Positions 9,153 through 26,154 of a DNA stretch of 32,000 nt are shown here, one piece after another. Positions within the stretch are counted from its first letter, which is position 1. Each line of letters begins with the position of its first letter. The position numbers and the translations under genes are program-made. The notes beneath the pieces were generated by a model, which saw nothing but the letters and a program-made list of their open reading frames with translations, searched no databases and was not told where the DNA came from. The stretch is taken from contig LT962688.1 of the NCBI GenBank assembly GCA_900234795.1, positions 3,150,001 to 3,182,000 of the forward strand, read 5' to 3'. Origin of the DNA: Methylorubrum extorquens. GTDB lineage: Bacteria > Pseudomonadota > Alphaproteobacteria > Rhizobiales > Beijerinckiaceae.

Positions 9153-9387
9153 TGCGGGATTGGCTCCGTCCAGCGCGCGAAGAGGCGGCGCTGACAGCAA
9201 CCCTTTGGCCCGACTTTCGGTTCACAGGGACGTGAGCCTGCGGGCAAAAGCGTTTCGCCGCTGCGTATTCGAACGGCGCACTCATGAAAAATTCACATTC
9301 TCGCCAAGTTCTCGCCGGAACCGTTAAGATCGGCTCCGGTTGACAGCGCACCGGTCGAACGCGACCGCCTCGCTTCAGGAGCCGTCG

Positions 9388-10089
9388 ATGCCTTCGACCC
9401 CGCGCCGCTCCAGACGACGCCTCGCGCTCGTCCTGGCCTCTTCCGCCTTCATCCTCTCCACTGCTGCCGGCGTTCACGCTCAAGAGGGCGGACTTGGCGG
9501 CTTATTTCAGCAACTCTTTTCCCCGCAGCGGGCCGCGCCCGCTCCGGTGGTGGCCCCGATTCAGGTTTACGGCGGCGGCGAGGTCAACGAGCGTTATCGC
9601 TGGCGCCGGCATCGCAGTACGGCGGATCGGAGCCGGCCGAAGGTGCGTTACGCTGCCCTGCCGAAGGATGACGGTCTCGGGATCAGCGGCAAGCAGCCGG
9701 TCGATTCGAAAGCGATCGCCGCAAATCCGACCGCGGCGCTCCTGCGCGACGAAACCCTTCGCCCCGGCGACATCGTGGTCATGCCGGGCGGCCCAAAGGT
9801 CTTCAAGGGCCATGACGATCGCGGTCGCGGCGCCAAGGCGGCCCGCCACCGGATGAGCGACTTCGAGGATGTGAAGCACTCGCGCACGATCAATGCCAAG
9901 ACCCGCAGCCAATTGATGGCGATGATGCTTCCACACGGCGCTATGCCGGCCGAGGAGGCCCGCAAAGTGCTCGCCAAAGCCCGCCGTCTGGCCCCGCAGG
10001 AGGCAATCGAGCCGCTGACCCGACAGGCGCGCGCCGAGACCGACCCGAAACCCACCCGCATCATCAGCCCCTGGCAGATCGCCCGCTAG
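9388..10089 (+). CDS. hypothetical exported protein
   Basis: The ATG at 9388 lies 6 nt after caggag. The N-terminus MPSTPRRSRRRLALVLASSAFILSTAAGVHA/QE looks like a signal peptide. GC3 is high. I recognise no family. Confidence 0.6.
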   Translation: MPSTPRRSRRRLALVLASSAFILSTAAGVHAQEGGLGGLFQQLFSPQRAAPAPVVAPIQVYGGGEVNERYRWRRHRSTADRSRPKVRYAALPKDDGLGISGKQPVDSKAIAANPTAALLRDETLRPGDIVVMPGGPKVFKGHDDRGRGAKAARHRMSDFEDVKHSRTINAKTRSQLMAMMLPHGAMPAEEARKVLAKARRLAPQEAIEPLTRQARAETDPKPTRIISPWQIAR

Positions 10090-10682: not shown

Positions 10683-11477
10683 CTACTGCTGAGCCCGAAC
10701 GACGTAACGCTCCATCAGAAGCCTGATGGTAAGGCTGCCGAACACCCAACCAAAGAGATATAGATAATCGATCTGAGCAGGGATCGTCGGGTCGTATCCC
10801 AGGTGCACCCATTCGACGATCTGTGTGATCGGATTCCATTTCATGTAGTAGTAAATTTCATCTGGCATATAACATGCCATGAAATAAACACCGCTCGTCA
10901 AATACAAAGTCAACGTTACCAAGATGTAGCCCAGCGCCCATCCCGGAAAGACCGAACAGATCCCGACATTGATCGTCCCGACACCGATCCCGAGCGCGAT
11001 CGCCGTCAGGTAGCCGGTGATAGCCATCATCATGTCGGTGGGAACGGGATCGGCACCGAAGCAGATGAGCACGACACCAACGAGTCAGACGCCCAAGAAG
11101 CTGCTGACGATCTCGACAAGGATGCGTGCGACAACGGTATCGAAGCGCTTCACTTGCGGGAAGTACGTCAGCGGCTTGTGAACCATGTAACCTTTCATCA
11201 CCTCGCGGGAGATGTACTGAAAGGCGAGAGCCGGCAATGCGCCGGAGGCGACGAAGACCATCGAATCGTCGCCCATGAGCGACTTGATTCCACGGAATGT
11301 CATGGCGCCGACGATGATGCCGAGATGCACGCAGGGCCAGAGAACCTGCACGAGGTAGCCCCAGTAGGTTCCGCCGAAGCGGCTGCGCATGTCGCGCAGC
11401 ATCAGGGCACTGAGGACGCGCAGGTAGACGTCGAGATGGCTCTGACGGCGCGGCAGAGACGAGGCGTGGGCGTTCAT
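10683..11477 (-). pseudogene. KpsM/CtrC-type ABC-2 polysaccharide-export permease, interrupted by an in-frame TGA (11085-11087)
   Basis: ORFs 11085..11477 and 10683..11072 are in the same frame, reading ...EIVSSFLGV*LVGVVLICFG.... By eye they align with E. coli KpsM: LMLRDMRSRFGGTYWGYL vs FLREIRTRFGKFRLGYL; VKRFDTVVARILVE vs VKPIDTIIARALLE; WNPITQIVEW vs WNPLVHVVEL. GC falls to about 40-55% here against about 70% in the flanks. There is no adjacent KpsT-like ATPase. Confidence 0.75.
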
Positions 11478-13739: not shown

Positions 13740-14336
13740 ATGAGCCGACCGGTGCGCCATGAGATCCCGCCGCGCTCGGGGGCGGCCTTCACGCTCGATC
13801 GCGGCCAGCGCCTCACCGTGATCGACCCCCAGGGCGAGCAGGTGGCCGACCTCGTGGCCTTCCGCCGAGACGATCTCGATGAGGTGATCTCCTCGGGCCG
13901 CACCATCGACTACGCCTCGCGCATCTTCCTGACGACGGGCGACCCGATCTACTCCAACCGCTCCAACGTGCTCCTGCGCATCGTGGAGGACACGGTGGGC
14001 CGGCACGACTTCCTGCTCACGCCCTGCTCGGCCGACACCTTCCGGATCATCTACGGCGACGAACACCCCCACCGGGGTTGTTTCGGCAACCTCGCCGAAG
14101 CGCTGGCGCCCTACGGGATCGAGCCGGACCGCATCCCGGTCGCCTTCAACGTGTTCATGCATGTCACCGTCGATGGGCAGAGCGGCGAGATCGCGGTGCG
14201 CCCACCGCTCAGCCAAGCCGGCGACCGGGTGAGTTTCGTGGCCGAGACCGACCTCGTCGTCGGCCTGACGGCCTGCTCGGCCCTGCAGTCGAACAACTTC
14301 TCCTTCAAGCCGATCCATTACGAGATCGAATCTTGA
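13740..14336 (+). CDS. DUF1989 domain protein (urea-carboxylase-associated family)
   Basis: aaggagagaacgacggATG. IPPRSGAAFTLDRGQRLTVIDPQGEQVADLVAF...GDPIYSNRSNVLLRIVEDTVGRHDFLLTPCS...FNVFMHV...LTACSA matches my memory of the DUF1989 pattern. 198 aa. Confidence 0.8.
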   Translation: MSRPVRHEIPPRSGAAFTLDRGQRLTVIDPQGEQVADLVAFRRDDLDEVISSGRTIDYASRIFLTTGDPIYSNRSNVLLRIVEDTVGRHDFLLTPCSADTFRIIYGDEHPHRGCFGNLAEALAPYGIEPDRIPVAFNVFMHVTVDGQSGEIAVRPPLSQAGDRVSFVAETDLVVGLTACSALQSNNFSFKPIHYEIES

Positions 14337-14612: not shown

Positions 14613-15368
14613 ATGCTGCTGCCTACCGACGACACCGGCCATCCGCTCGCTGAGCGTTTCCGGCACTTCATCCGCCAACAGCCCTTCCCTTGTGTCGGCG
14701 CCAAATCCGCTCTGTCCCGTGGCCAGCTGAAGGTTCTGGTCGCCCGAGACGTCGCCTCCGACAGCGACGACGCGCGGATCTATCCGGCGCTGCTGGCCTT
14801 CATCTGCCGCTATCGCGCCCGGCGCGACCAGTTCCAGAGCTTTGCCGTCGTGTTCGAAGGCCCGCACCACCTCTCCGAGGAGGCGTTCGAGGCCGCACTC
14901 TGGCGGCGGATGCAGTCGCTGTCCGACCGCGACAGTGAGCTGGGACATGCCCAGGATCCGCGCGTGTCGGCCAACCCGGAAGACACGCATTTCTCGATGA
15001 GCCTCGGGGGCGAAGGCTTCTTCATCGTCGGGCTGCATCCCGGCGCGAGCCGCAAGGCGCGCCGCTTCGAGCACCCGGTGCTGGTGTTCAACCTGCACGA
15101 CCAGTTCGAGCGCCTGCGGGCCGAGGGGCGCTACGACCGGCTGCGCGACTCGATCGTCGAGCGGGACGTGGCTTGGACTGGGTCAGTCAACCCGATGCTC
15201 GCGCAGCACGGCGAGCGCTCCGCGGCCCGGCAATTCAGCGGACGCGCCGTGCCGGACGATTGGGTCTGCCCCTACCACCGTCAGGAGGGAGCGGTGGAAT
15301 GGGATGCGCAGCAGGTCGCGGCGGATCTGCGCTCGGGTGCCTTTCTCGCCGGACAGATGGAGGGTTGA
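14613..15368 (+). CDS. YqcI/YcgG family protein (GntA-like, putative heme-dependent N-oxygenase)
   Basis: The ATG at 14613 follows gaggtg. FRHFIRQQPFPCVGAKSALSRGQL...FQSFAVVFEGP...FFIVGLHPGASRKARRFEHPVLVFNLHDQFERLR is the conserved YqcI/YcgG core as I remember it. 251 aa. Confidence 0.75.
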   Translation: MLLPTDDTGHPLAERFRHFIRQQPFPCVGAKSALSRGQLKVLVARDVASDSDDARIYPALLAFICRYRARRDQFQSFAVVFEGPHHLSEEAFEAALWRRMQSLSDRDSELGHAQDPRVSANPEDTHFSMSLGGEGFFIVGLHPGASRKARRFEHPVLVFNLHDQFERLRAEGRYDRLRDSIVERDVAWTGSVNPMLAQHGERSAARQFSGRAVPDDWVCPYHRQEGAVEWDAQQVAADLRSGAFLAGQMEG

Positions 15369-15370
15369 GC

Positions 15371-16396
15371 ATGACGATCGCCGACGCTCCATCGCATCCC
15401 ACTGCCTCCCAGGGGCCGGACGCCTGCCATGAGGACCGCGAGGACGCGTTCCTCGCCCTCGCTCGCGCGGTGCGGGACACCGGCTACCGGTTCACCACCG
15501 TCACGCCGGCCACCCACGCCCGGGTGAACGCCCGGCCCGAGAACGCCCTCGCGCGATCGCTACGGGACGTGCTGGGCTGGAGCCGCCCGTTTCGCGACGG
15601 CCTGATCCCGGCGGAACTGACCGACCTGATGGAGCGGGCGGGCGTGCTGCACCGTTCGGAGGGGCCGGATGGTTCTCTCCTGAAGGCGCAGATCCGGCTG
15701 TCGAGCCTCGACGACACGTTGTTTGTGCATGCGGCCTACCCGCCGCTGGCGGCGGATTCCGTGTTCTTCGGCCCCGACACCATGCGCTTCGCCGAAGCCG
15801 TCCTTGCCCATCTCGAAGAGCGGGCCAGAGCCGGACACCCGGCGCCGCGGCGGGCGGCCGATATCGGCTGCGGCTCGGGCGCGGCGGGCATCCTTGTCGC
15901 CAGGCGGTTACCGGAGGCCGAGGTCGTCCTCGTCGACATCAACCCGGCCGCCCTTCGCGCCGCACGCATCAATGCCCGGCTCGCAGGCGTCGACAACGTG
16001 CGCCCCGTTCACAGTGACATGCTGAGCAACGTCGAGGGATCGTTCGATCTCATCGTCTCGAACCCGCCCTTCATGGTGGATTCCGGCGGTCGGGCCTACC
16101 GGCATGGCGGCGGACCGCTCGGAGCCGGGTTGTCGCTGCGCGTGGTCGAGGCGGCGACCGAGCGATTGGCGCCGGGTGGCAGCCTTGTCCTGTTCACCGG
16201 CTCGGCCATCGTCGAAGGCCATGACGGTTTCCGGGAGGAGGCGAGCGCGATCTGCGCGCGGGCCGGTCTGGAGGTCTCGTACCGCGAGTTCGATCCGGAC
16301 GAGTACGGCGAGGAACTCGACGATCCGGGCTACGCGGCGGCCGAGCGTATCGCGCTCGTTGTCCTCACCGCCACCCGCCCGACCGGACCGCGATGA
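15371..16396 (+). CDS. class I SAM-dependent methyltransferase (MTS / small-domain type, NPPF motif)
   Basis: The ATG at 15371 is 2 nt after the upstream stop and is preceded by ggaggg. Motif I is ADIGCGSGAAGILVA; VDINPAAL follows; the catalytic-type motif is LIVSNPPFM. An N-terminal domain of about 150 aa has unknown function. 341 aa. Confidence 0.8.
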   Translation: MTIADAPSHPTASQGPDACHEDREDAFLALARAVRDTGYRFTTVTPATHARVNARPENALARSLRDVLGWSRPFRDGLIPAELTDLMERAGVLHRSEGPDGSLLKAQIRLSSLDDTLFVHAAYPPLAADSVFFGPDTMRFAEAVLAHLEERARAGHPAPRRAADIGCGSGAAGILVARRLPEAEVVLVDINPAALRAARINARLAGVDNVRPVHSDMLSNVEGSFDLIVSNPPFMVDSGGRAYRHGGGPLGAGLSLRVVEAATERLAPGGSLVLFTGSAIVEGHDGFREEASAICARAGLEVSYREFDPDEYGEELDDPGYAAAERIALVVLTATRPTGPR

Positions 16397-17340
16397 GCGC
16401 GGCAGAGGCAGCGGCCGGCGAGCGTGCCGAGTTCCTTCGGGACGCGCTCGCGGGCCTGTCGGGCGAGGTGAAGACCCTACCCGGCAAATACCTCTGGGAC
16501 GAGACTGGTTCGGATCTGTTCGACCGGATCTGCGCCCATCCGGACTACTACCCGACGAAGCGGGAAATGGCGCTTCTGCCGCGGGTCGCGGCAGAGGTGG
16601 CAGCCCTCGTCGGCCCGGGCGTCAGCGTCGTGGAATTCGGCAGCGGCGCGAGCCGGAAGATCAGAACCCTGCTCGACGCCCTGGAGGCGCCGGCCGCTTA
16701 CCTCGCCCTCGACATCTCGGGAGCCTATCTCGAAGCGGCGATCGCGCGCCTCGCCCCGGATTATCCGGCCGTGCCGATGATTCCGGTCTGTGCCGATTAC
16801 TCGAAGCCGATCCGCCTGCCGCCGGGGGCTGCCGTGCCGCCGATCCTCGGTTTCTTTCCCGGCACCAGCATCGGCAACTTCACGCCGGAGCAGGCGGAGG
16901 GCTTCCTGGCGCGGGCGCGGGAGACGCTGGGGCCAAGCCACTTCCTGGTCGGGGCCGACCCGACGCACGACCCGGCCCGCTTACGCCGCGCCTACGGTGA
17001 GGCGGGCGGGCTGATGCCGGCGCTACACCTCAACCTCATCGAGCGGATGAACCGGGAACTCGGCAGCGATTTCGACCGGAGCCATTTCCGCCACGAGGTA
17101 CGGCTTGCCGACGACCCGTTCCGGGTGGAAGCTCATCTCGTGGCAACCCGGCCCGGCGCCTACCAGCTCGGCGACCGGACGATCCGCTTCGCGGCCGGCG
17201 AGAGCATCCGCACCGACACCTCCCACAAATACGCGCCGGACACGTTTCGGGCCCTGGCCTCGGCTCAGGGCTGGGAGCCGGTCCGCCTCTGGGTCGATGA
17301 GGACAGCGGCTTCAGCCTCCACCTGTTCCAGGCGCGATAA
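16393..17340 (+). CDS. EgtD-family (Methyltransf_33) amino-acid N-alpha-methyltransferase homologue
   Basis: It has an ATGA start/stop overlap with the upstream gene. By eye it is collinear with mycobacterial EgtD: LPGKYLWDETGSDLFDRICAHPDYYPTKRE; VEFGSGASRKIRTLLDAL; LALDISG; FFPGTSIGNF; LVGADPTHD...LRRAYGE; NLIERMNRELGSDFD; ESIRTDTSHKY. 315 aa. Confidence 0.8.
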   Translation: MSAAEAAAGERAEFLRDALAGLSGEVKTLPGKYLWDETGSDLFDRICAHPDYYPTKREMALLPRVAAEVAALVGPGVSVVEFGSGASRKIRTLLDALEAPAAYLALDISGAYLEAAIARLAPDYPAVPMIPVCADYSKPIRLPPGAAVPPILGFFPGTSIGNFTPEQAEGFLARARETLGPSHFLVGADPTHDPARLRRAYGEAGGLMPALHLNLIERMNRELGSDFDRSHFRHEVRLADDPFRVEAHLVATRPGAYQLGDRTIRFAAGESIRTDTSHKYAPDTFRALASAQGWEPVRLWVDEDSGFSLHLFQAR

Positions 17341-17351
17341 GCCCACGCCGC

Positions 17352-18589
17352 TCAAGCACGGGCCGGCGCGTCGGCGAGATAGGTCAGGAGCGCGAGCCAA
17401 GTCGGCAGGCAGTGACGCCGCCGGTCGTAGCGGTCGATCACCGTCCGCCGGGCCGCCTCCCGCAGGGGCCGCCACCGTTCGGGCGTGCGGCAGGCGTCGA
17501 TGAGCGCTTCCGCCAGGGCGTCGGCATCAAAGAAATCGCGGACGATCCCGTTCACGCCGTCCCGCACACCTCCCGCACCGGCGCGGTGTCCGAGGCGATC
17601 ACAAGGCATTCGCACGCCATCGCCTTCAGGAAGACCCGCGAAAGCGAGAAGGGATAGGTGTAGGCGACATGCGCCGTGGCCACCGAGAGGGCGGCCACCA
17701 TCTCCGCGTGCGTGAGCCGCTGGAGGAAGTGGAGGCGATCGAGATCGAGCCGGCCGTCCAGCTCGGCCAGCAGGCGTTCCTTCCACGTCTGCAATTGGGC
17801 CCCCTTTGCCACGCCATTCCCGCGCCCGTCGCTCCCAATCACCAGGATCTCGGCCTGGGGCACGGCTTCGAGCAGCGCCGGTAGGGCACGCATGAAGGTC
17901 GGGAAGCCGCGCAAAGGCTCCAATTGCCGGGCGATAAAGGTGATGACCGGCCAAGCCTTGGTCAGCTTTCGCCCGTTCGGCAGATGCACGACGGCATGGG
18001 GATCGTAGCGGACCTCATCCGTATCGATGCCTTCGTGTATTACACTGGCCTGCGCCCGCAAGCCCGCCGGCAGCAGGCTGCGCTGGAACTCCGTCGGGCA
18101 GACCAGCCGCTCGGCCTCGGCATAGGCCATGGCCAACGCCGCATTCCCGGCGCGGTCGCGCACGCGGTCTTCGAGGTTGGGCGGGCGCGTCCACTCGGAA
18201 TCGAAGCCGAGCGCATCCCCGTCCGCCCGGTAATACGGCGCGTAGGCGAACCGACGCGCCCGCGGAAAGACTTGGTTGAGCAGCAGCGATTCACCGCGCC
18301 CCGGATGCCCGACGATGACGGCCGGGTCGAAGCCGTGCTTGCGCAGGTCGAGCGCGCATCGCAGGGCGGCGGTGGCGTTGATGAATGCTGCTTCGGTCGG
18401 ATGGGCCAGCGGGAACAGGCCCGGCGTCACCTTCCGCCCCGGACGCCATCGCAGGATCGGCAAGCCGGCCAAGCCCGGTGCGGCCTCTCCGGCGATGGCC
18501 GCGCAGCGATGCCTTCGATCCATCAGCGCCTCGGCGAGAAAGCCGAACGGGCCTGGGAAATGGTCGTGAACGAACAGAAAATCCGTCAT
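17352..18589 (-). pseudogene. GT4-family (group 1) glycosyltransferase with an apparent 1-nt deletion near 17565-17569
   Basis: The upstream frame (ORF 17552..18820, real start MTDFLFVHDHFPGPFGF at 18589) ends ...CLVIASDTAPVREVCGTA*. The downstream frame (ORF 17352..17954) continues VRDGVNGIVRDFFDADALAEALIDA.... Joined, they give the GT4 motif ...PVREVVRDGVNG.... The span is 1238 nt, i.e. 3n+2. Confidence 0.75.
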
Positions 18590-24717: not shown

Positions 24718-26154
24718 TCAGCCGGCAGCCTTGTCGGCCGCCGCCTCGTTGTTGGACTCGCTCGGCTTCTCGTCCGTCGCGGCCCCGCCGGTCACGGCGT
24801 CGGCCTCGTCGTCTTCGGCGAAGAGCGCCTCCTTGGAGACGGGTTCCTCGACGACTTGGACCTGACCGAGGACATGGTCGACGACCTTCTCCTCGAACAG
24901 CGGCGCGCGAAGCTCGGCGAGCGCCTGCGGATTGTTGCGGTAGAAGTCGTAGACCTGCTTCTCCTGACCCGGGAACTGCCGGATCCGGGCGAACAGGGCC
25001 TGATTGACCTCGTCATCCGAGACCTTGATATCGGCGGTCTCGCCGACTTGCGCAAGCACCAGACCGAGCCGCACGCGGCGCTCGGCGATCTTGCGGTACT
25101 CCGCCTGCGAAGCCTCCTCGGTCGTGCCCTCGTCCTCGAAGGTCTTGCCGCGAGTCTTCAGGTCCTGCTCGACCTGCGCCCACACGGCGGCGAACTCCTG
25201 GTGGACAAGGCTCGGGGGCAGGTCGAAGGCGTACTTGCCGTCGAGCGCGTCGAGCAGCTCCTTCTTGAGCTTGCGACGGGACTGGGCCTCGTAATCGGAG
25301 CCGACGGCCTTGGAGACGGCTTCCTTCAGCTTCTCGAGGTCGTCCATGCCGAAGCGCTTGGCGAGTTCGTCGTCGATCTTGGTCTCGCCGGGGGCTGCGA
25401 CGGCCTTCACGGTCACGTCGAACTCGGCGTCCTTACCGGCGAGCTGCTCGGCCTGGTAATCGGCCGGGAAGGCCACCTTTACGAGGCGGCTGTCGCCGAC
25501 CTTGGCGCCGACGAGCTGGTCCTCGAAGCCGGGGATGAAGGTGTTGGAGCCGAGCTCCAGATCGACGTCCTCGCCCTTGCCGCCCTCGAACTCGGTGCCG
25601 TCGATGCGGCCGACGAAGTCGATGGTGACGCGGTCGCCGGACTGCGCCTCGGCGCCCTCCTCGCGCGGCTCGAAGGAGCGGCTGTCCTTGGCCATCCGCT
25701 CGAGCGTCTCATTGACCTCCTCGTCGGAGGGCTTGAGCACGAGCTTCTTGATCGAGACGTCGGAGAGGTCGGCGAGTTCGAAGCTCGGCAGCACCTCGAG
25801 CTTCACCTTGAAGGCCAGATCGCCCTTGGCATCGAGCGCGCGCTCGATGATGGTCTGCTCCTCGTCCTTCGGGAACTCGATCTGGGGCTCGAGCGCGAGG
25901 CGCAGGCCCTTGTCGGTGACGATCTGCTGGTTGGCCTCGTTGACGGCGTTCTGCAGCACGTCGGCCATCACCGACTTGCCGTAGACCTTGCGCAGATGCG
26001 CGACCGGCACCTTGCCGGGGCGGAAGCCCTTGATCTGGACCTTGCCCTTGATGTTCGAGAGCTCGGTGTTGAGGCGATCCTCAAGCTCGTTCGCGGGGAG
26101 GAGCACCTGAAACTCGCGCTTCAGCCCCTCGGAGGTCGTCTCGGTCACCTGCAT
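24718..26154 (-). CDS. tig: trigger factor
   Basis: [25 protein letters not shown]...[20 protein letters not shown] (the ribosome-binding GFRxGxxP motif), a PPIase-like middle region and an acidic C-terminus. I chose the ATG at 26152-26154 (478 aa). The ORF extension to 26316 runs into the tRNA. Confidence 0.95.

Follow-up and report, generated by a model that had tools for sequence, protein, structure and literature searches.

What does a bacterium make with a putative nitrogen hydroxylase and two methyltransferases whose genes are read as one unit? The question is raised by a stretch of 32,000 nucleotides from Methylorubrum extorquens (assembly GCA_900234795.1, contig LT962688.1, positions 3,150,001 to 3,182,000 of the forward strand; the window, below). 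A YqcI/YcgG-family gene, a class I methyltransferase gene with an NPPF motif (MT) and a gene for a divergent paralogue of the histidine methyltransferase EgtD (EgtD-like) follow one another there, downstream of a gene for a DUF1989 protein. A preliminary description, made from the sequence, had proposed that this trio forms a self-contained route to an N-methylated and N-oxygenated amino-acid derivative, such as a betaine or N-hydroxy compound. Profile searches, genome neighbourhoods, a structure model and residue-level alignments lead to an answer of similar kind, in which the trio would be a stress-induced operon whose enzymes modify the nitrogens of a single free amino acid and so give a betaine with N-methyl and N-hydroxy groups; the amino acid would be a basic one, possibly with a guanidino group. 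To this reading as a whole we give an even chance.

The features of the locus are as follows.

13740-14336, + strand: DUF1989 protein gene, 198 amino acids, PF09347
14458-14482, + strand: sigma-EcfG-type promoter motif GGAAC-N16-GGTT, 131 nt before the start codon of YcgG
14613-15368, + strand: YqcI/YcgG-family gene, 251 amino acids, PF08892
15371-16396, + strand: NPPF class I methyltransferase gene (MT), 341 amino acids, PF05175 core
16393-17340, + strand: EgtD-like gene (divergent EgtD paralogue, Methyltransf_33), 315 amino acids, PF10017
17352-18590, - strand: GT4 glycosyltransferase gene, frameshifted, PF12000 and Glycos_transf_1

Direct reading of the junctions bore out the tight spacing of the three + strand genes. 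The YcgG stop codon TGA (15366-15368) is followed by GC and by the MT start codon ATG at 15371, a gap of 2 nt, with a GGAGG Shine-Dalgarno sequence upstream of that ATG, and MT and EgtD-like share a 4-nt ATGA overlap at 16393-16396. The order is an OPT transporter gene on the - strand, then DUF1989, YcgG, MT and EgtD-like, all on the + strand, then the converging GT4 gene on the - strand. An identical EgtD-like protein, with gene order unchanged, is encoded in CP021054.1 (GCA_002117815.2), and over 20 further assemblies share it. Pfam and NCBIfam profiles place every protein in the family that the preliminary description had named, and its observation of the gene cluster is thereby confirmed.

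Conservation of the cluster

The 120 best MT homologues, none of them below 65% identity, all belong to Methylobacterium or Methylorubrum. In gene tables or open reading frame (ORF) searches the trio is intact in at least eight species of these genera and in at least four different neighbourhoods; the carriers are the window strain, M. zatmanii, M. aminovorans, M. oxalidis, M. sp. 4-46, M. mesophilicum, a related metagenome-assembled genome (MAG) and M. frigidaeris. The flanks comprise an OPT transporter and DUF1989 upstream with GT4 and lon downstream, patatin and DUF1989 upstream, or Imp-YgjV upstream without DUF1989. The 4-nt overlap of MT and EgtD-like recurs across Methylobacterium species despite proteins that are just 63-69% identical and despite the differing flanks.

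Outside these genera the MT family was surveyed in one genome per species, with the family alignment as query, which yielded 80 loci. The trio was not found outside Methylobacterium among these 80 species-level loci, nor on PLSDB plasmids, and YcgG, EgtD-like or DUF1989 occur as neighbours of MT in Methylobacterium only. The trio is, as judged from gene order and spacing, one functional unit, an operon specific to Methylobacterium/Methylorubrum; conservation as a unit thus holds for the trio, within these confines. In M. frigidaeris the order is MT-EgtD-like-YcgG-DUF1989, so that the cluster resolves into two pairs, MT staying with EgtD-like and YcgG with DUF1989.

The NPPF methyltransferase and its oxygenase partners

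The MT protein matches PF05175 (MTS; E 6.8e-22) over residues 145-274 only and carries the GCGSG and NPPF motifs; its N-terminal portion of about 140 residues is without family match, as had been noted. By sequence, the catalytic domain comes closest to HemK/PrmC (protein glutamine N5-methyltransferases), RsmC and PrmA, and JGI annotates MT homologues as 'release factor glutamine methyltransferase'. The match to HemK/PrmC spans the catalytic core only (residues 135-237), and the scores lie far below the cut-offs of both release-factor models (TIGR03534, 82 against 199 bits; TIGR00536, 66 against 115 bits). An exhaustive search delimits a family of 341 representative clusters at E<=1e-30, mostly aligned at full length with 37-55% identity, that has a conserved N-domain of its own and the invariant motifs FFGPDxxRF, NPP[FY] and YRxGG.

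The partners of this family are largely enzymes of the N-oxygenase type, namely heme-oxygenase-like diiron (HDO) proteins. In 44 of the 80 loci an HDO protein of about 450 residues (type 1, PF14518) is encoded directly upstream on the same strand, usually overlapping MT, as in Pseudomonas, Halomonas, Stutzerimonas and others; in 16 further loci an HDO protein of about 290 residues (type 2, also PF14518) adjoins MT or lies within about 1 kb, mostly just downstream, the taxa including Acetobacteraceae and myxobacteria. An HDO partner is thus present at 60/80 loci, with one extra locus at which the HDO gene is 5.6 kb off, and MT is coupled or fused to HDO or YcgG at 68 of the 80. Examples of the MT-HDO module are L046 6550-8999, L018 7983-9866 and L096 5046-6858; the pairing also occurs on Komagataeibacter and Legionella plasmids, and one family representative (P0247) is an MT-HDO fusion protein. 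The type 2 profile matches the lysine N-oxygenase HrmI (E 2e-45) and SznF (E 1.6e-4), and the Pseudomonas-type HDO gave no informative relative in the PDB, profile search included. Fluopsin biosynthesis (FlcA-E) was weighed as a precedent for the MT-HDO pair of Pseudomonas and rejected, since clustering of neighbours shows HDO as the only widely conserved one. On a Legionella sainthelensi conjugative plasmid (L095 4068-6841) a 609-residue fusion of an arginine-deiminase/DDAH-like domain with MT is followed by an HrmI-like HDO gene, which ties the MT family to guanidino substrates.

The AF2 model of MT (pLDDT 93) has as its best folds AerE (an asparagine side-chain amide N-methyltransferase; TM 0.62-0.65, both domains), GenN (gentamicin 3''-N-methyltransferase), RsmC and PrmC, all of them N-methyltransferases. 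In a profile alignment the Asp of the GPD motif and the Asn of NPPF correspond to AerE D141 and N231, at an overall identity of about 20% and with Phe in place of AerE Tyr137. Because of this fold and this alignment, MT is best interpreted as an enzyme that methylates a planar nitrogen in a side chain, with an N-oxygenase as its normal partner; and since these partners are small-molecule N-oxygenases, its substrate is likely to be a free amino acid and not a peptide or protein. Proteusin precursor and radical-SAM epimerase genes were not seen in the gene tables of the loci.

No HDO gene lies beside MT in the window or at the other Methylobacterium loci, which are to that extent unlike the MT-HDO modules. 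There the partner position is held by YcgG in seven of the eight trio species, the exception being M. frigidaeris, and we infer that in Methylobacterium HDO has been replaced by YcgG as the partner of MT.

The YcgG protein

YcgG covers the whole PF08892 profile (positions 1-211/211; E 3.4e-56, 190.8 bits against a cut-off of 27) and contains the core motif FPCVGAKSA. Direct PDB sequence search with YcgG returned no match; a profile of the YcgG clade to which it belongs matches AglA (PDB 9UB3) at E 8e-6. In the profile alignment Cys27 of YcgG (FPCVGAK) falls on the axial Cys44 of AglA, R150 on the heme-propionate Arg166, and F137 and F165 on the gate residues Phe152 and Phe182, with His162 at the place of AglA Arg179 and with AglA Lys196 and Arg200 beyond the aligned stretch. 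Cys27 and R150 are invariant across nine homologues. The roles of Cys44, Arg166, Phe152/Phe182 and Arg179 are those given in PMC12866846; the corresponding axial cysteine of ChmN is Cys47.

N-hydroxy-arginine, later hydrolysed to hydroxyurea, is the product proposed for the family member DcsA. DcsA binds heme and is needed for D-cycloserine biosynthesis, and ChmN requires ferredoxin and reductase and functionally substitutes for the HDO domain of a SznF-like enzyme (PMC10849742). All six YqcI/YcgG enzymes described as characterised in PMC12866846 hydroxylate a guanidine N-H of arginine derivatives with a Cys-ligated heme. YcgG is thus predicted to be a thiolate-ligated heme N-hydroxylase of a guanidine or amine nitrogen.

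The link to GntA of guanitoxin biosynthesis, which the preliminary description had drawn, holds at the level of the family: YcgG scores 252 bits against a cut-off of 145 with the 'GntA' equivalog model NF041366. It goes no further than the family: GntA belongs to a gntA-J cluster and acts on an enduracididine-derived intermediate, and no other gnt genes occur in the window or in the homologous loci examined, so that the cluster is not a guanitoxin cluster. NF041366 over-annotates 'GntA' as an equivalog, because PGAP gives the name 'guanitoxin GntA' to YcgG proteins of YcgG-DUF1989 pairs in organisms without guanitoxin genes (Sphingomonas, Comamonas and Deinococcus).

The DUF1989 protein and the YcgG-DUF1989 pair

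The DUF1989 gene seen upstream on the same strand (13740-14336) encodes a full-length PF09347 protein (E 7.6e-57) whose PDB matches are 3ORU at E 4e-25 and Tdm (9Q59) at E 2e-15; the three cysteines that bind Zn align. This Zn-Cys3 family includes the carboxyguanidine deiminase CgdAB and the metal domain of trimethylamine N-oxide (TMAO) demethylase (PMC12560246, PMC11271267). The protein falls below the UAAP equivalog cut-offs of TIGR03424/5 (107 against 285 and 84 against 206 bits), and no urea or guanidine carboxylase gene is present in the window.

The nearest homologues of YcgG outside Methylobacterium (35-59% identity to the window YcgG) have DUF1989 directly 3' in Sphingomonas, Skermanella, Novosphingobium, Comamonas and Deinococcus, a span of Alphaproteobacteria, Betaproteobacteria and Deinococcus. 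The two genes overlap by 4-8 nt in four of the genera and are separated by 4 nt in Deinococcus (L093 4989-6292, L094 4947-6309, L097 3477-4765, L099 3489-4791 and L100 3372-4854). DUF1989 also remains with YcgG in the rearranged M. frigidaeris cluster. It is, from these pairings, a probable accessory partner of the YcgG enzyme. With MT paired to an oxygenase elsewhere, and YcgG paired to DUF1989 elsewhere, the window locus joins two modules.

The trio can therefore not be called self-contained, as it had been in the preliminary description: YcgG enzymes need an external ferredoxin and reductase (PMC10849742), and DUF1989 is the habitual coupled partner of the YcgG clade elsewhere.

The EgtD-like paralogue

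EgtD-like is a full-length member of PF10017 (E 3.5e-88), is named egtD by PGAP and passes the EgtD model TIGR03438 marginally (304 bits against a cut-off of 290.9). It is 36% identical to M. smegmatis EgtD and 42% identical to the M. aquaticum EgtD that is encoded beside egtB. The residues that bind the alpha-carboxylate and alpha-amine of the substrate (Y56, N166, Y206 and S284; roles from PMC8593015) are kept in EgtD-like and in canonical EgtD alike. The side-chain pocket of EgtD in its histidine form comprises Thr213, which positions an imidazole-binding water, together with Glu282, Met252 and Tyr39. In M. smegmatis EgtD numbering the two proteins compare as follows.

Position 39: canonical EgtD Y, trio copy W
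Position 142: canonical EgtD F, trio copy Y
Position 213: canonical EgtD T, trio copy M
Position 217: canonical EgtD N, trio copy H
Position 252: canonical EgtD M, trio copy A
Position 282: canonical EgtD E, trio copy D

The changed pocket is found in all 31 members of the EgtD-like subfamily examined, and in six of six canonical Methylobacterium sequences these positions are as in M. smegmatis. The assignment to the EgtD family thus stands; identity with the EgtD of ergothioneine synthesis does not, the trio copy being a paralogue with a changed pocket. That pocket, as aligned, argues against histidine as substrate, and EgtD-like is predicted to be an amino-acid alpha-N-methyltransferase with a non-histidine-type pocket.

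Canonical EgtD orthologues co-occur in species with the trio. On the single chromosome of M. aminovorans, egtB-egtD lies at 2.81 Mb and DUF1989-YcgG-MT-EgtD-like at 3.69 Mb, 0.9 Mb apart, the egtB-linked copy being a different gene. In the window, no FGE-sulfatase/DinB_2 (EgtB) gene occurs within 10 kb of the EgtD-like gene. In M. aquaticum the egtB-egtD tandem is on plasmid pMaq22A_1p; deletion of the egtBD tandem, which the paper places on the largest plasmid, abolished ergothioneine, which is a stress and UV protectant in Methylobacterium (PMC4621440). The possibility that EgtD-like is the sole EgtD of some species was set aside, as canonical egtBD co-exists with the trio in the species examined, a set that does not include M. 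populi and M. oryzae, for which unclustered egtB and egtD were reported (PMC4621440). Table S3 of the same paper lists the chromosomal Maq22A_c02975 as the EgtD homologue of M. aquaticum 22A, and its text places the egtB/egtD tandem on pMaq22A-1; evidently, two genes of the EgtD family are present in the strain, and the trio copy may be one of them.

The EgtD-like subfamily forms an orthologous group of its own in Hyphomicrobiales and occurs solo in Microvirga, Salinarimonas, one MAG and M. gnaphalii. This solo occurrence suggests that EgtD-like is an autonomous alpha-N-methyltransferase of a common amino acid that was recruited into the Methylobacterium operon. In a Microvirga MAG (L106 1985-5954) the solo gene is about 2.5 kb from genes for an ecfG-type sigma factor, nepR and a response regulator, the core general-stress locus; a GGAAC motif was not found within 350 nt of its start.

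Regulation

The motif GGAAC-N16-GGTT lies 93-147 nt upstream of YcgG at 7/7 Methylobacterium loci with a YcgG-first gene order. In an alignment of the intergenic region from five Methylobacterium species GGAAC and GGTT are invariant and the 16-nt spacer is variable. The same motif precedes the YcgG-DUF1989 pairs of Sphingomonas (L093) and Skermanella (L094); other strict matches number six in about 277 kb of related sequence, both strands included. The motif before YcgG fits the M. extorquens sigma-EcfG consensus GAAC-N16,17-C/GGTT (PMC4814048) and equals the general-stress motif of sphingomonads (PMC7083833). A sigma-EcfG promoter, that of the general stress response, is thus predicted to drive the trio operon; the preliminary description had not noted it. 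In a Sphingopyxis granuli ecfG1 ecfG2 mutant a urea-carboxylase-associated gene was 24-fold down and its upstream uncharacterised neighbour 9-fold down; the two are a probable orthologous pair. Rfam searches, at gathering thresholds or E<=5, gave no riboswitch for guanidine or another ligand upstream of YcgG or DUF1989, and scanning for sigma-70 promoters and terminators gave nothing informative.

The only other strict match in the window (9317-9341, + strand) is 47 nt upstream of the ATG at 9388 of a gene for a 233-residue protein without Pfam family, and is a second candidate general-stress promoter. Upstream of the M. mesophilicum trio (L091 1-5800 and L092 1-5900) there are about 12 small genes of 55-130 residues, one of them DUF2171, with four and three strict motifs, respectively, one each before YcgG; this run looks like a general-stress gene island.

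A proposed pathway

Taking gene structure, families, conserved catalytic residues, co-occurrence, paralogy and the promoter motif as observed, we infer substrate identity, reaction order, product and physiological role along the following lines. The EgtD paralogue would methylate the alpha-amino group of an amino acid other than the histidine of canonical EgtD, probably to the trimethyl betaine. YcgG, with its thiolate-ligated heme and with housekeeping ferredoxin and reductase, would hydroxylate a nitrogen in the side chain, and the precedent of its family makes a guanidino nitrogen, in arginine or a close analogue, the likeliest target. MT would methylate a planar side-chain nitrogen before or after hydroxylation, for which SznE and SznF, where arginine is methylated and then N-oxygenated, may serve as a model. 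DUF1989 would probably act on the N-hydroxylated C-N group, by deimination or hydrolysis, for example. Such a pathway would end in a small amino-acid betaine with N-methyl and N-hydroxy groups, formed under stress and possibly a protectant, metal-binding or redox-active metabolite alongside ergothioneine. The N-methylated and N-oxygenated derivative of the preliminary description is strengthened by the pairing of MT with HDO, by the N-methyltransferase fold and motifs and by the alpha-amino-acid binders of EgtD-like, and its identity is put forward here as a proposal.

A guanidino substrate is hinted at by three independent lines, the known YcgG substrates, the chemistry of the DUF1989 family and the arginine-deiminase/DDAH fusion; since the HrmI-like partner of MT elsewhere acts on lysine, an arginine-type substrate is given no more than about an even chance. 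A more specific proposal, which we consider possible but doubtful, is an undescribed, stress-controlled N-alpha-trimethyl betaine of arginine or another basic amino acid with an N-hydroxy/N-methyl guanidine, a second leaf-surface protectant or redox- or metal-active metabolite beside ergothioneine.

Several observations weigh against the proposal. In M. gnaphalii EgtD-like stands alone beside OPT and MT stands alone at a separate locus; with the solo EgtD-like genes of other genera, this implies that the three activities need not be obligatorily linked. DUF1989 is absent beside the M. mesophilicum trio, and in the window its gene lies upstream of the stress promoter and has no GGAAC-N16-GGTT at its own start. 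The cluster contains no ferredoxin or reductase gene. The evidence for EcfG control is a sequence motif, and SGRAN_3301 of Sphingopyxis granuli is a putative YcgG protein. Of the pocket changes, E282D is conservative and compatible with histidine. The basis for a guanidino substrate is family precedent and one domain fusion, and the HDO partner best matched to a characterised enzyme, HrmI, is matched to one that acts on lysine, not arginine.

Alternative explanations

Catabolism or detoxification of guanidino or methylated nitrogen compounds, such as guanidine, methylguanidine or plant arginine analogues, would make YcgG and DUF1989 the core of the locus and the methyltransferases accessory. 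The host is a methylotroph, YcgG-DUF1989 is a stand-alone two-gene unit in many bacteria without other biosynthetic genes, and the DUF1989 family holds both a deiminase of guanidine nitrogen assimilation and a TMAO demethylase domain. Two S-adenosylmethionine (SAM)-consuming methyltransferases translationally coupled to YcgG fit this poorly, however; guanidine or urea carboxylase, allophanate hydrolase and guanidine riboswitch are all absent from the locus, DUF1989 scores far under the UAAP cut-offs, and the promoter is of stress type rather than nitrogen-regulated. We regard the explanation as unlikely.

A second ergothioneine or hercynine route, in which EgtD-like would be another histidine N-alpha-methyltransferase and its neighbours would modify histidine or hercynine or be unrelated, draws on the TIGR03438 score and the PGAP name, on the conservative E282D and on the physiology of ergothioneine, which protects Methylobacterium against stress and UV (PMC4621440) and whose egtBD genes belong to the general stress regulon in Sphingopyxis (PMC7083833). 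Against it, the same genomes carry canonical egtB-egtD with the full histidine pocket, the deletion of which removed ergothioneine completely in M. aquaticum (PMC4621440); the trio copy has six concerted pocket changes, T213M and M252A included; and EgtB, EanB or MES-type sulfur-transfer genes were not found nearby. A histidine route is accordingly given a low probability.

A generator of reactive nitrogen would have the N-hydroxyguanidine made by YcgG cleaved by DUF1989 to hydroxylamine, methylhydroxylamine, HNO/NO or hydroxyurea, which would serve as antimicrobial or in stress signalling, with the methyltransferases tuning the leaving group. DcsA, as a heme-binding protein required for D-cycloserine biosynthesis (PMC10849742), offers a parallel; DUF1989 enzymes deiminate the C-N of carboxyguanidine; and the YcgG-DUF1989 unit is widespread and compact, and of three plasmid loci examined from Alphaproteobacteria two have the stress motif in front of it. 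Direct evidence of such chemistry in DUF1989 proteins is missing, though, the alpha-N-methyltransferase is left unexplained, and DUF1989 is dispensable beside the M. mesophilicum trio. Both the generator and its tuning by methylation seem improbable to us.

That MT is a housekeeping protein or rRNA methyltransferase of the HemK/PrmC, RsmC or PrmA kind, with unrelated neighbours and an adjacency devoid of pathway meaning, is suggested by its best domain matches and the JGI annotation but is very improbable, given the PrmC shortfall (82 against 199 bits), the family's own N-domain, motifs and patchy distribution, the coupling or fusion to HDO or YcgG at 68 of 80 loci and the genus-wide ATGA overlap with EgtD-like.

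Significance

The betaine-forming operon proposed here has no known counterpart among characterised clusters: the preliminary description knew of no pathway with this composition, and full-text searches of the searchable library likewise found none, nor any publication on the trio, the MT-HDO pair or the YcgG-DUF1989 pair. Both pairs are widespread, and if the proposal is true, the chemistry of MT with an oxygenase (N-methyl-N-hydroxy amino acids) and that of YcgG with DUF1989 (cleavage of N-hydroxyguanidine) would be new. Methylobacterium is a dominant leaf-surface bacterium whose stress tolerance is partly explained by ergothioneine, and an operon with a stress promoter around an EgtD paralogue points to a further protective or signalling amino-acid betaine. 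Several poorly annotated families gain testable hypotheses: the EgtD subfamily with its pocket signature, the NPPF MT family, which is large and currently mis-annotated as release-factor methylase, the YcgG proteins labelled 'GntA' and DUF1989 proteins outside guanidine carboxylase operons. The exchange of HDO for YcgG, documented so far for graminine-type pathways only, would recur here with a methyltransferase partner, which makes the pairing rule testable.

Other features of the window

The GT4 gene converges on the trio with 11 nt between the TAA of EgtD-like and its own stop, as had been described, and is indeed frameshifted, by a 1-nt deletion near 17566 relative to the intact 412-residue allele of related assemblies (L003, L103). 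Within this gene two indel positions distinguish the NCBI assembly (L001) from the window sequence, and the split may reflect either a pseudogene or an error of sequencing in a homopolymer. Beyond GT4 lie tRNA-Val, lon, clpX, clpP and tig. An ABC-2 type permease gene (10683-11477, - strand) has an in-frame stop (...SSFLGV*LVGVV...) that divides it into ORFs of 130 and 129 residues; its M. aminovorans orthologue is one intact 264-residue protein. ARAGORN calls a tRNA-Ser(cga) at 25746-25839 (+ strand), on the strand opposite to the trigger-factor coding region, which is probably a false positive because it is without an Rfam match at the gathering threshold.

Comparison with known systems

Each component has a characterised relative from which the window locus departs in a definable way. 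With CgdAB and Tdm the DUF1989 protein has full-length PF09347 and the Zn Cys triad in common, but it is a single small subunit, with no CgdA/CgdB pair, carboxylase, allophanate hydrolase or GcvT domain. With the EgtD of M. smegmatis, M. tuberculosis and the Methylobacterium egtBD tandems, EgtD-like shares the full-length Methyltransf_33 fold and the residues that bind SAM and the alpha-amino acid; it differs in overall sequence (36-42% identity), in six pocket residues and in its position away from egtB.

The YqcI/YcgG hydroxylases AglA, GntA, DcsA, ChmN, AmbT and Mhr24 have the same full-length PF08892, axial Cys, propionate Arg and Phe gates, and like them the window YcgG is expected to use an external ferredoxin and reductase on a side-chain N-H. 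AglA is a distant sequence relative only (profile E 8e-6), and its gating Arg179 is His in the window protein. The guanitoxin, argolaphos, cycloserine and graminine clusters differ in context, which in the window consists of DUF1989 and two methyltransferases.

AerE and PoyE have in common with MT the two-domain fold and the FxGPD, NPP[FY] and Y..G.G motifs, but act on a proteusin precursor peptide encoded nearby, whereas no such genes were seen with the window MT. A parallel in logic exists with SznE/SznF (streptozotocin) and ChmN/ChmM (chalkophomycin), which likewise combine a methyltransferase with an N-oxygenase on a basic amino acid. The window has no cupin or N-nitrosating domain, nonribosomal peptide synthetase or sugar-attachment genes, and adds an alpha-N-methyltransferase and DUF1989. 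The exchange of an HDO domain for a YcgG protein, reported for ChmN (PMC10849742), mirrors the exchange seen here across genomes.

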